The position numbers are program-made. DNA of 64,000 nucleotides from Bdellovibrio sp. (GTDB taxonomy: Bacteria; Bdellovibrionota; Bdellovibrionia; Bdellovibrionales; Bdellovibrionaceae). Positions 45,001 to 48,000 of the stretch are shown in pieces (position 1 is the stretch's first letter; each line of letters opens with the position of its first letter). The stretch lies in NCBI GenBank assembly GCA_036676395.1, contig JAKFCY010000002.1:2560001-2624000 (forward strand), written 5' to 3'.

Positions 45001-48000
45001 ATCCATATGTTGTCTTACTATCGAAGCTGTTGGTTCCACCTTCCCAAGCGGCACCGGGAAACAACACTCCTAAACCTGTCGACCACGTTACGCGTTCACG
45101 CGGTTTATAGACAAGCTCTACATCTAATTCTAGGCCCAAGTCTTTTTTCATGTCTACAAATTTCTTTTCATTCATTAATTGAGCGTAAACAATCGTTGCC
45201 TTTAGATCGATTTGATCATCGTATGCATACTTCACAGTTGGTGCTAAGAACATTGCATTTGTTACGGCTTCATCATCTGCAGAATTTTGCGTACTTAAAC
45301 CACTTGCTCCATCATTTGCATGAATCGGAGACGTTCCGATAATGTCTGCTGAACCTAAACGGTGATTAAATAATAAAAATCCTAAATCATAATTGCGATC
45401 TAAGATGTAACCTTCGTAAGTGTCTGCTGTATCTGGGTTATCACCACTGACAACGCCGGCTTTACCAGAGTATTCCCAAGAACTTTCGCCCGGAGGAAAT
45501 AAACCTTCCATAACAACTGCATATGAATCGACTTTGATTTCTGCGGCAGCTGCATTTGTTACACCCGTGTTACCAGTTAAGAAGCTGGCTTCGATTTTAA
45601 ATTCAAACGCAGACCATTTTCTTTCTAAGAAAATATTAACTGTTTGAGTTTTTAAACCTGTAGTTGCAGATGTAACGCCGCTTGGCAATTCAGCCGCACC
45701 GTAATCATTATAGGCTGGCCCTGCAGAACGTGTTTGGTGAAACAACCCTGCGCGAGAACCTGCATCTTTATTATTGTACTCTAAAATATAGATTTGGTCA
45801 GTTGCTACGCCACCACCGAAATCATCTTGTGATACACGGGCAATCATTGGTGCAATTGATAAGTTATCAACAACAAAACGGTACGAAATAACTTCTTTCG
45901 TATCTATCCAATGATCAAATTGGCCTTTACCCGCGTTATGCGTGATACCAATACCGAATTCAACCGGAGCGCGGCCAACTAATAACGAACCATATTCATG
46001 ATTTACGTTTAAATATAATTGGCTGACTTGAATAGAAGATGAATTTTGATTTTGTGAAGTCGCATTTGATCCATTTGCGCCAGCTGACCCATCATTTAAA
46101 CCAGTGCCGATGATTGAACCCATTTGTGAGTTTTTATAAGCTGGCAATTGGTTTGCCATCACATCAAAACGACTGTGGATATTGATGCCATCAGATCCGA
46201 TGATACGAGGTTGTAAGTATAAAAAATTAAGCGCGTAGCTTTTGCCTAATTTTTGATTTGCCAAAGAAGTGCTATTTACACCAGTGTATTCAGCGCGGTA
46301 GCCACCAGTCCAATCAATCGAAATAGCGGCCGCAGTTTGCGATACAAGTAATGCAGCTACAAAAAGTTGTGAAAGTTTCATCGTCAGTTCCCCTTATTAT
46401 TCTGTCACACCAAGAATTTCATTCTCGTGCACGATATGTAGATCTTCATTATTAAATTTAACTTTAGTGCTTGAATATTCATTGAATAAAACCGTGTCAC
46501 CGATTTTTACATCAAGCAGTTTGTGGTGGCCCTTTTTAGTATAAGTGCCATGACCCGCAGCTAAAACTTCACCTTTAAGGTAACCTTCAGTTGAAGACAT
46601 TGAATCCGGAAGAATTAATCCGCCCGGAGACACTTTTTCAGTTTTAACTAAACGAATCACTAAACGATCGCCTAATGGCGTGATCGCTTTTGTGTAATCA
46701 ACTTTAACTACTGCAGCTTTTGCAGGAGCCTGAGCCGGCCGCGCCGCTTTTTTAGCCGTAACTTTTTTAGCAGGTTTAGCTTTTACAGTTTTTTTAACTG
46801 GAGCAGATTTTTTAATAGCTTTTTTAGGAGTTACCTTTTTAGGGGCCTTCTTTGCTGTAGTTTTTTTCACAGCTTTTTTAACTGGCTTGGCTTTAGCTTT
46901 AGGTTTTGCAGTCGCCTTTTTAGCTGGAGCTTTTTTAACTGGTTTTTTCGTTTTCTTAGCCACGACGGTTTTTCTCCTCTTCATAATATTTCTTGTACAT
47001 GATTTCCCATTCTGAGGTGCCTTCCATGACATTGCGTTTTAGAGACGCTACTTTTTCACGGGCTTTGGTATCAATTTCTGCATCTTCGCGAACAAACAGA
47101 ACAATAGCGCGTCTCGCGGCTACTAAAGCCTGGTCATCATCAGAAAAATCGACGATGTCATCGCCCCAAACTTTATCTGTGATAACTTTAGCCCAATGAC
47201 CGATACGCTCTTCAGAAAGAATCATAAGATCACCTTTTTCTCTTTGGCTAATTTCATTTTTAATAAATTAAACATCTTGCCGCGTTGAAATTCTTGGCCT
47301 TCACGTTCCATGTGATCCATCAAAGCATGCACATCTTTTTCTAATGCAATTTCAGCCTGCAACTCTACGTTGATGGCGTCTTTCATGGCTTGCAGAACTT
47401 TAGATTCTTCAACCTTTAACGTGATTAGATTATTTGTTTTCCACTCTTTTAAGATTTTTTCAGACAGTCTTTGTATTTGACTTGCAGATAGCTTCATCAT
47501 TGTAATTACTTATGTCCTTTTATTCGATATTAAAGACCAGTTTTTTTATTCTTACAAGCGCAATATCTTTAAGCGTCAGCGCCATTGATATACAAGAGGA
47601 GTTTGAAAGCAAACTCTCTTCACAAGCCATTTTACAATCGACAAAGTACTATGCCAGAGGGCTTTCGTACAAAATTAACCAGAAATTCGACGCAAAAGCT
47701 GTGCAGAAGAGCTTTTTAGACAAAGGTTATCGCGAAAGAGCAGGAGATCAGGTCATTTTAGCTGGAGATTTCATCACCCTACAAGCGCAAGCCTGCAGCA
47801 ACTTGTTCGGCATTTCTCTGATGCAGGATTCCACATGTTTTCACTGGAAGAACCAAACCAGCACGCTAAGTGGTTCAGAATCTTATGTGGCCGTGATCTA
47901 CCAAAACACCATTCAGCAAATTTTCAAAGCTGACCCGACTCGTGTTGTGACATCGGCGCAAACCGATCCAGTGATGGTGGCGCAGTTTCGCAACAACGAA

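Follow-up and report, generated by a model that had tools for sequence, protein, structure and literature searches.

The window analyzed here, the whole stretch of 64,000 nucleotides from a Bdellovibrio sp. genome, carries a second co-chaperonin gene, groES2, and raises the question of whether a GroES-type lid can be made with a lysine-rich tail fused to it and, if so, what such a tail would hold on to. The groES2 CDS is located on the minus strand at 46397-46963 and encodes 188 aa plus the stop, with the GTG start at 46963-46961 and the stop at 46399-46397; a Shine-Dalgarno-like GAGGAG lies 10 nt 5' of the GTG (46974-46979, minus strand), which overlaps by 8 nt the TAA of the upstream gene (46956-47225). 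The genome-wide survey's note had described this arrangement of GTG, ribosome binding site, overlap and a tail fused to a Cpn10 domain, and both the ORF reading and Pfam PF00166 confirmed it. The N-terminal Lys/Ala/Pro tail comprises residues 1-93 (46685-46963, minus strand) and is followed by a complete Cpn10/GroES domain, residues 94-188 (46400-46684, minus strand). The ordinary groES, of 99 aa, is found on contig C3 at 418070-418348, and the sole groEL of the genome at 418477-419982. A promoter scan at groES2 gave sites no more numerous than in shuffled sequence, none of them within the tail.

The Cpn10 domain was recognized by Pfam PF00166 over residues 94-186 (E 1.6e-23; score 83 bits, cut-off 21.1; positions 2-92 of the 93 in the profile); moreover, the alignment to E. 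coli GroES (1aon_O, E 9e-15) pairs residues 94-188 with its residues 3-96, the domain matches 18 distinct solved sequences, and AlphaFold2 models it confidently (pLDDT 81-92). When compared with canonical GroES from E. coli (1aon_O) and T. thermophilus (4v4o_O), GroES2 matches the fold along its full length and retains the hydrophobic tripeptide of the loop; it differs by its 93-aa N-terminal tail, a mobile loop longer by two residues and a roof that is basic where theirs is acidic. The mobile loop (residues ~108-128, 46580-46642, minus strand) contains the tripeptide L116-I117-L118, as seen in alignments in which GGLILPD of GroES2 faces GGIVLTG of E. coli GroES, whose IVL we take to be the GroEL-binding tripeptide; it is maintained as L-[YFIVH]-[IL] in 30/30 GroES2. 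The roof hairpin, GHGTYTKKGHHKLL (residues 137-150, 46514-46555, minus strand), is basic according to the alignment, mean roof charge being +4.1 for 30 GroES2 versus +1.0 for 21 GroES1. These comparisons show that GroES2 retains the GroEL-binding loop; it would presumably form a heptamer and cap GroEL.

The tail has a quite different character, being composed of K (38%), A (25%), V (12%), P (11%) and T (9%), with a single acidic residue and a net charge of +35; K+A+P amounts to 73%, and AlphaFold2 assigns it no secondary structure (pLDDT 52-59), features that it shares with H1-like tails, which are Lys/Ala/Pro-rich, disordered and strongly basic. H. pylori HspA carries a metal-binding C-terminal His/Cys tail, and phage T4 gp31 displays changes in its loop. 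Like these two, chloroplast Cpn20 (7ekq) resembles GroES2 in being a Cpn10 with an addition that alters the role of the lid, the addition there being a second Cpn10 domain; none of these three is known to have an N-terminal polycationic disordered tail, unlike GroES2, and our literature search gave no relevant paper on a GroES with a lysine-rich N-terminal extension. Similar composition, disorder and high positive charge are found, in the portions of the literature available to us, in the tails of chlamydial Hc1/Hc2, AlgP, PhaF and mycobacterial Ku (PAKKA), a type of tail that binds DNA, RNA or polyphosphate granules; among them, as far as those portions go, only the GroES2 tail is attached to a chaperonin lid. 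The window's tail also differs from these in having no tandem DNA repeat (Tandem Repeats Finder) and in staying below the Pfam HC2 cut-off: PF07382 gave no match to the window's GroES2 at E 0.01, and the tail of the orthologue from B. bacteriovorus HD100, Bd3349 (CAE78154.1), reached 27.7 bits, under the cut-off of 40, while a precomputed PF07382 match is present on some GroES2 relatives.

Is this tail a real part of the protein? The 2012 study of bd3349 trimmed the gene from 224 to 117 aa, regarding the tail as repetitive sequence, as the survey's note had reported and the available text of that study bears out (PMC3464611), and public gene models for one B. bacteriovorus cluster conflict, at 117, 155, 219, 221 and 224 aa. 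In our set of 30 family loci the tail frame is open in every one, more than chance would give, the remaining two frames of the same stretch jointly containing 2 to 30 stops. Tail dN/dS was 0.15-0.38 (10 pairs among 5 congeners), and tail GC3 tracks the GC of the locus (r = 0.81). The tail begins with GTG in 25 of the 30 loci and with ATG in the other 5, all of them with a purine-rich site at the equivalent place, and with ATG or GTG after a GGAG-type site in 10/10 sister-family loci, including some without an overlapping upstream gene; in 40/40 loci examined, therefore, the tail opens with a start codon and is preceded by a Shine-Dalgarno-like site. Loci L004 and L005 of genus g9, which have no DUF507 genes upstream, still possess both the start and the purine-rich site. 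Moreover, no ATG, GTG or TTG is present within 25 codons 5' of the Cpn10 domain in 9/30 loci, the window's included, so a tail-less GroES is impossible there, and Met108, the start chosen in the 2012 re-annotation, is not conserved across the 30 loci. Judged by its frame, start codon, Shine-Dalgarno site, missing alternative start and dN/dS, the tail is shown to be coding and conserved and not an artefact; together with its presence across the order, this agrees with what the survey's note had proposed. The best explanation of these sequence features is that groES2 would produce the long protein, a GroES-type lid with a disordered polycationic tail of ~93 residues on each subunit.

The fused frame had been reported previously in 7 of 24 relatives, which turned out to be an undercount, since 57 of the 61 family genomes searched carry it (56 from the search table, plus G028 on inspection of the locus); 54 of those 56 are free of stops, and the other two have just one, at the match edge. 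Five sister families have the fusion too: f2 (in at least 18 of 31 genomes), f7 (1/1), f8 (2/2), f9 (3/3) and f6 (1/13). For 120 genomes of the phylum that lie outside the order, the matches listed included no clean long one (0 of 120); extended matches in G218, G222, G196 and G248 contain stops and were discarded. In the phylogenetic tree, 40 tailed and 31 untailed GroES sequences are split on one branch with support 100/98; on this tree, tailed GroES2 is a single group of one origin, which includes the window protein and its HD100 orthologue, the latter represented by the close Tiberius protein L005 (L005 and CAE78154.1 form one 90% cluster). GroES2 evolves faster than GroES1, mean pairwise identity being 54% versus 86%. 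The named relatives closest to the window genome are members of the epibiotic clade, in the type species of which two or three daughter cells arise via binary or non-binary fission; because these relatives retain the tailed gene, the link with filament septation proposed earlier is not general.

The neighborhood of groES2 is also conserved. The upstream gene (46956-47225, minus strand) is, by Pfam, the C-terminal half of a split DUF507 and is syntenic with groES2 in 28/30 loci, its N-terminal half being encoded at 47222-47500 (minus strand; Pfam and synteny) with a 4-nt overlap between the two. Downstream, at 44972-46381 on the same strand, an ORF of 469 aa encodes a protein with a signal-peptide-like N-terminus, for which Pfam gave no family and which is located downstream of groES2 in 29/30 loci; a PBP1-type gene lies upstream, on the opposite strand, in 30/30. 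The HD100 locus shares the flanking PBP1-type and 469-aa genes with the window, whereas the DUF507 pair of the window genome is absent from Bdellovibrio proper. RNA contigs from HD100 cover both groES2 and the 469-aa gene, which are probably co-transcribed, and the tail and the Cpn10 region are found on single RNA contigs in three studies. The contigs of two studies stop at the identical base, ~77 nt before the annotated GTG, a weak hint only, as RNA contigs are unable to reveal a transcript start; the supplements of Karunker 2013 list no transcription start site for the groES2 locus.

Data published for HD100 bear on the function of the tail. The only relevant paper found by a literature search on Bd3349 was the 2012 study. 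In published data, Bd3349 had an RPKM of 0.45 during attack phase, compared with 594 during growth phase, and the available text of the 2012 study reports RT-PCR expression at 2-4 h only, under Bd0743 control (PMC3464611). In the portion of the proteomic study at hand, whole-cell LFQ in attack phase was 7.3e8 for Bd3349 versus 3.9e8 for GroES1, a measure blind to long versus short form, and the nucleoid-fraction iBAQ of Bd3349 was 1.67e7 (row 92 of 2,236) (PMC10627809). The same tables give Bd3349 of attack-phase HD100 a log2 Nuc/Top of 5.08 (~34-fold), in a fraction that is nucleoid plus membrane, compared with 3.36 for the histone Bd0055, 2.78 for GroES1, which is thus enriched as well although tail-less, and -0.74 for GroEL, whose nucleoid-fraction iBAQ (1.2e6) is 14 times below that of GroES2; the neighboring Bd3348 scores 5.74, and ~25 of the ~180 most abundant rows examined have values of at least 5.08 (PMC10627809). 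Any lid would be set free from GroEL by the EDTA in the lysis buffer of this fractionation. The survey's note had proposed a lid tethered to the nucleoid and, through it, GroEL. The enrichment of the orthologue favors the first part, but since the fraction, according to the authors, gathers membrane proteins too (PMC10627809, in the part available), it is no proof of DNA binding; the second part finds no support in those same tables, in which GroEL is not co-enriched, and because GroEL is not in the nucleoid fraction a chaperonin role on the nucleoid is not established.

GroES2 is not the only protein of this genome with such a tail. A scan of all open frames (40-aa window, K+A+P at least 30, K at least 10) gave 10 frames, among which all five tailed proteins named in the survey's note were recovered: a SWIB fusion (SWIB domain E 8.5e-30), a basic-acidic protein, two orphan fusions and groES2. 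The remaining five are L21, L17, IF2 and two envelope-type proteins. HD100 relatives were found for four of the tailed proteins, three with a long tail and one with a much shorter K/A tail; CAE78107.1, the sole other counterpart mapped in HD100, has a log2 Nuc/Top of 3.56 in the rows available (PMC10627809). Pfam HC2 was also tried as a census of H1-like tails and rejected, being useless for this purpose because it gave one weak match each in the HD100-type genome and in the window's genome.

The N-terminus of GroES faces outward from the dome. A GroES2 heptamer would display seven tails, with ~+245 charges in the window organism, plus a ring of basic roof hairpins, so that the exterior of the dome would become a polyanion binder. 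We give an even chance to the proposal that seven tails attach the heptameric lid to the nucleoid. The chromosome is the most likely target of the tail, and we infer direct DNA binding, while RNA, polyphosphate or membrane are possible alternative targets. The groES2 gene of B. bacteriovorus is transcribed late, in growth phase, and its protein is still present in attack-phase cells, where it would be located on the condensed nucleoid mostly without GroEL; each daughter nucleoid would be supplied with a store of alternative lid for the single GroEL, and GroES2 may contribute to charge neutralization and compaction. A caution is that a tail with a charge of +35 might become bound to DNA only once the cells have been lysed.

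A doubtful but possible explanation is that the long form is made and its partner is RNA or ribosomes, so that the lid would be delivered co-translationally, or else polyphosphate granules. The same tail type on L21, L17 and IF2 in the window genome agrees with it, as do the precedents, taken from the available parts of the papers, of H1-like AlgP, which spaces polyphosphate granules (PMC9239181), and of the disordered region of PhaF, which binds RNA (PMC12818456); against RNA, abundant CAE807xx rows in the accessible HD100 table, whose ribosomal identity is a guess from their abundance and neighboring numbers, have log2 Nuc/Top values of ~0 versus 5.08 for GroES2. It is unlikely, though it fits the 14-fold higher iBAQ of GroES2 over GroEL in the HD100 nucleoid fraction, that GroES2 is instead a chromatin protein proper, a seven-armed polycation hub whose dome is basic and which, free of GroEL, would bridge and condense attack-phase DNA as an analogue of linker histones. 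We consider it distinctly improbable that the tail, through anionic lipids, anchors GroES2 at envelope machinery or the inner membrane: the conserved cluster does include the gene of a signal-peptide protein and one of PBP1 type, and in the available HD100 data membranes co-sediment with the nucleoid fraction, in which Bd3348 is even more enriched, but no segment of the tail is hydrophobic or amphipathic, the partners of K/A/P tails known from the literature at hand are nucleic acids or polyphosphate, and the basic roof would be left unexplained. Equally remote is a tail without any particular partner, acting as an entropic brush or as a regulator of solubility, lid-on time or GroEL access; the tail is indeed poorly conserved in sequence and varies in length (53-126 aa within the family, up to ~180 aa in sister families), composition alone being maintained, but its charge is strictly kept at +18 to +41, with 0-3 acidic residues across family loci, which a brush has no need of, the roof became basic in parallel, and GroES2 leaves the soluble fraction in the HD100 table, as far as available. 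An untranslated tail, the 2012 proposal in which an internal start gives a short GroES, is very improbable, for despite an in-frame ATG 21 codons 5' of the HD100 Cpn10 domain and certain public annotations of 117 or 155 aa, that ATG is not conserved, 9/30 loci have no usable internal start, and frame, start codon, Shine-Dalgarno site and dN/dS below 1 are maintained across an order.

The evidence on the tail corrects the published 117-aa re-annotation and settles the conflicting public gene models of B. bacteriovorus. GroES2 is an added candidate nucleoid protein of Bdellovibrio, where the available part of a 2025 preprint names SMC, HU, Fis, IHF, Dps and histone-fold proteins, and not GroES2. 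If the tail does hold the lid on the chromosome, it would represent a new way of placing folding capacity within the cell, and GroES2 may be a newly recognized factor in the extreme compaction of DNA in the attack-phase predator; both ideas are directly testable in a tractable model strain.

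The groES2 gene is located on the minus strand, from a GTG at 46963 to a stop at 46397, and encodes a 188-aa protein; GAGGAG stands 10 nt upstream of the GTG, which shares 8 nt with the stop of the upstream gene. A complete Cpn10 domain covers residues 94-186 (Pfam, E 1.6e-23), and residues 94-188 were matched by HMMER to residues 3-96 of E. coli GroES and to 17 other solved co-chaperonin sequences. The tail, residues 1-93, contains 38% Lys, 25% Ala and 11% Pro with a single acidic residue, and has a net charge of +35. Tandem Repeats Finder detected no DNA repeat in this stretch even at a score of 30; thus the tail is a low-complexity protein and not a DNA repeat. 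AlphaFold2, using an alignment of 30 sequences, modelled the domain confidently (pLDDT 81-92) and the tail without secondary structure (pLDDT 52-59). The ordinary 99-aa groES (GroES1) lies immediately 5' of the sole groEL of the genome, both on a different contig from groES2.

Six lines of evidence argue that the tail is translated, as the genome-wide survey's note had proposed: an open frame, a start codon with its site, the lack of an alternative start, dN/dS, RNA contigs in a single piece and long public gene models. Translated in six frames, 61 genomes of the family were searched for a match running from tail to domain, and 56 had one; 54 matches were free of stops and two had one stop at the match edge (these frames stay open for 190 and 159 aa). 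Genome G028 was scored short, yet its locus shows a 63-aa tail, poorer in lysine, bringing the total to 57 of 61. Ordinary GroES alone was found in G004 and G019 (96% and 99% complete), and the remaining family genomes lacking a fused match, G016 and G048, have a completeness of 67% and 54%. In each of 30 loci compared, stops interrupt the two alternative frames over the tail (2-30, both frames summed).

The tail begins with GTG in 25 and ATG in five of these loci, every time behind a purine-rich GAGG/AGGA-type site, and this codon never loses its middle T, although the upstream gene, where it overlaps, reads that base as a third codon position. Two loci of Bdellovibrio proper (L004 and L005) keep AAAGGA and GTG despite missing the upstream DUF507 genes, and in five sister families the tail opens, at all ten loci read, with ATG or GTG after GGAG-type sites, the start site being still present at several where the upstream context is unrelated. 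In the window's groES2 no ATG, GTG or TTG occurs from tail residue 32 until a GTG within the first strand of the domain, 9/30 loci have no start codon within the 25 codons preceding the Cpn10 domain, and Met108, chosen as the start of the HD100 protein in 2012, has no fixed equivalent in other loci. Values of dN/dS were 0.15-0.38 for the tail vs 0.03-0.18 for the domain (10 pairs, five congeners), on a low-complexity alignment with dS saturated in distant pairs; tail GC3 tracks the GC content of the locus (r = 0.81). RNA-seq contigs of B. bacteriovorus from three studies carry tail, domain and downstream gene on a single piece, which informs on presence only and not on transcript ends. Public gene callers often predict the long form (matches of 150-224 aa, named co-chaperone GroES), and one 90%-identity B. 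bacteriovorus cluster describes a single locus, that of Bd3349, the HD100 orthologue, by models of 117, 155, 219, 221 and 224 aa in different records.

GroES2 retains the GroEL-binding loop (GGL[YFI]IPD aligned with GGIVLTG). The roof hairpin is acidic (TEDG) in the ordinary GroES of these genomes and basic in GroES2, e.g. GRGHRDKKGRLRP, with a mean roof charge of +4.1 (range 2 to 6) in 30 GroES2 vs +1.0 in 21 GroES1; all ten sister-family GroES2 have a basic roof too. A conserved D-x-S-x-F motif is found immediately N-terminal to the domain. GroES2 evolves faster, with a mean pairwise identity of 54% vs 86% for GroES1, and its tails, 53-126 aa long within the family and up to ~180 aa in sister families, retain their charge but not their sequence.

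In a class-level genome sample (f10, genome G118, stands outside the tally), the fusion was present, within the order, in families f1, f2 (at least 18 of 31 genomes), f7 (1/1), f8 (2/2), f9 (3/3) and f6 (1/13), and was not seen in f3, f4 and f11 (one genome each), in the four genomes of f5 or, in the other order, in any of six f12 genomes. Among the matches listed for 120 genomes from the phylum's other classes there was no clean long match, and the closest ESM Atlas clusters of comparable length are labelled Bdellovibrionota. An extended match in another family of the phylum (G218:C11:46999-47451, query residues 36-186) has three in-frame TGA codons; it may be a coincidental match, or come from a gene that is recoded or broken. 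In an unrooted maximum likelihood tree of the Cpn10 domain alone, one branch (support 100/98) split all 40 tailed sequences from 31 untailed ones, the latter comprising 21 GroES1 of the order and 10 sequences from other classes. One origin of the tailed GroES2 is the simplest reading rather than a proven one, given the few alignment columns, the long branches and the lack of a root.

The order PBP1-type gene (opposite strand), two half-size DUF507 genes, groES2 and a 469-aa gene is kept in 28/30 loci. The DUF507 pair (46956-47500, minus strand; 92 and 89 aa, profile positions 1-93 and 93-181) was present before groES2 in 28/30 loci and not found in the two of Bdellovibrio proper; its halves share 4 nt with each other and overlap groES2 by 8 nt, suggesting coupled translation. 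A DUF507 structure has been solved, its function is not known, and half-size forms are predicted to pair (PMC10439177). The 469-aa protein (44972-46381, minus strand) begins with a stretch resembling a signal peptide and falls in no Pfam family, and its gene lies 3' of groES2 in 29/30 loci. In the HD100-type genome, RNA contigs from two studies stop at the identical base ~77 nt before the annotated Bd3349 GTG (L052:2263-2340), inside the 5' end annotated for the divergent PBP1 gene, whose start the old annotation puts just 11 nt away from Bd3349.

The survey's note had also placed GroES2 in a toolkit of H1-like tails. A set of K/A/P-tailed proteins does exist in the genome, and one of them bears a SWIB domain, as described; this fusion is 83% identical in the HD100-type genome, tail included. 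Long tails are likewise retained there by the KAP-plus-C-domain protein and by a basic-acidic protein (C2:2322695-2323264, plus strand; L058:1369-1965, 52% identity), which has a Lys/Ala/Pro first half, a poly-acidic second half and an aromatic residue at its end; a fourth, CAE78107.1 in HD100, has a far shorter K/A tail and a nucleoid-table log2 of 3.56. Ribosomal proteins L21 (C3:304644-305276, minus) and L17 (C2:2270505-2271083, minus) have Lys/Ala-rich C-terminal tails and IF2 (C2:1901056-1903893, minus) a K/A/P-rich N-terminal region, so the motif is not chromatin-specific in this genome. The septating filament invoked in that note cannot be the general reason, since the closest named GroES2 proteins (Pseudobdellovibrio sp. 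and Bdellovibrio sp. qaytius) belong to a clade described as epibiotic, whose type species P. exovorus divides by binary or non-binary fission into two or three daughters (PMC11870529).

In HD100, groES2 is off early and on at 2-4 h and is de-repressed in a Bd0743 sigma-factor mutant (Lambert et al. 2012, PMC3464611); its RPKM differs between 0.45 in attack phase and 594 in growth phase (Karunker et al. 2013). We matched accessions CAE78154.1 (Bd3349), CAE77776.1 (GroES1) and CAE77777.1 (GroEL) in the source tables published by Hocher et al. 2023 (PMC10627809) for attack-phase cells. Whole-cell LFQ, nucleoid iBAQ and log2 Nuc/Top were 7.3e8, 1.67e7 and 5.08 for GroES2 (row 92 of 2,236 in the nucleoid table), 3.9e8, 2.03e7 and 2.78 for the tail-less GroES1, thus enriched as well, 4.0e9, 1.2e6 and -0.74 for GroEL, and 6.4e9, 2.13e8 and 3.36 for histone Bd0055; the ratio is read as log2 because Bd0055, at 3.36, is termed 10-fold enriched. 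About 25 among the ~180 most abundant rows reach 5.08 or more. In the parts of that article covered here GroES2 is not discussed, and GroES is absent from the main-text terms. GroES2 thus departs the soluble fraction ~34-fold, without GroEL, into a fraction of nucleoid plus membranes; the lysis buffer contains EDTA, with which any lid would come off GroEL. With its mRNA low and the protein present in attack phase, GroES2 outlives its mRNA.

In GroES, the N-terminus sits at the dome's outer rim. Seven disordered tails of +35 each, together with the basic roof, would make the exterior of the heptamer a multivalent polyanion binder, and its timing and its behaviour in fractionation both suggest the chromosome condensing for attack phase as the target; that GroES2 is a lid held on the nucleoid is the reading we favour, at about even odds. 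That the tail binds another polyanion, RNA/ribosomes or polyphosphate, is possible though doubtful. A membrane partner appears improbable, even if the nucleoid fraction also gathers membrane proteins according to its authors, and Bd3348, the abundant HD100 counterpart of the 469-aa protein, reaches 5.74 there (LFQ 3.35e9; PMC10627809). Equally improbable is a tail acting as a non-binding brush or regulator, given that the protein leaves the soluble fraction. The short form of Lambert et al. 2012 (PMC3464611), who shortened the gene to 117 aa on account of "repetitive sequence", is highly improbable against the six lines on translation.

The GroES2 gene family is already known; new are the start-codon and no-alternative-start argument for the tail, the basic roof, the tree suggesting a single origin, the spread across the order and the tie to published nucleoid-fraction data, and our literature search found no description of a lysine-tailed GroES. 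The boldest reading, a heptamer acting as a GroEL-free DNA-bridging hub, we hold to be unlikely. As a lid held on the nucleoid, GroES2 may provide an alternative lid stored and partitioned with each nucleoid, and may perhaps help in neutralising DNA charge.
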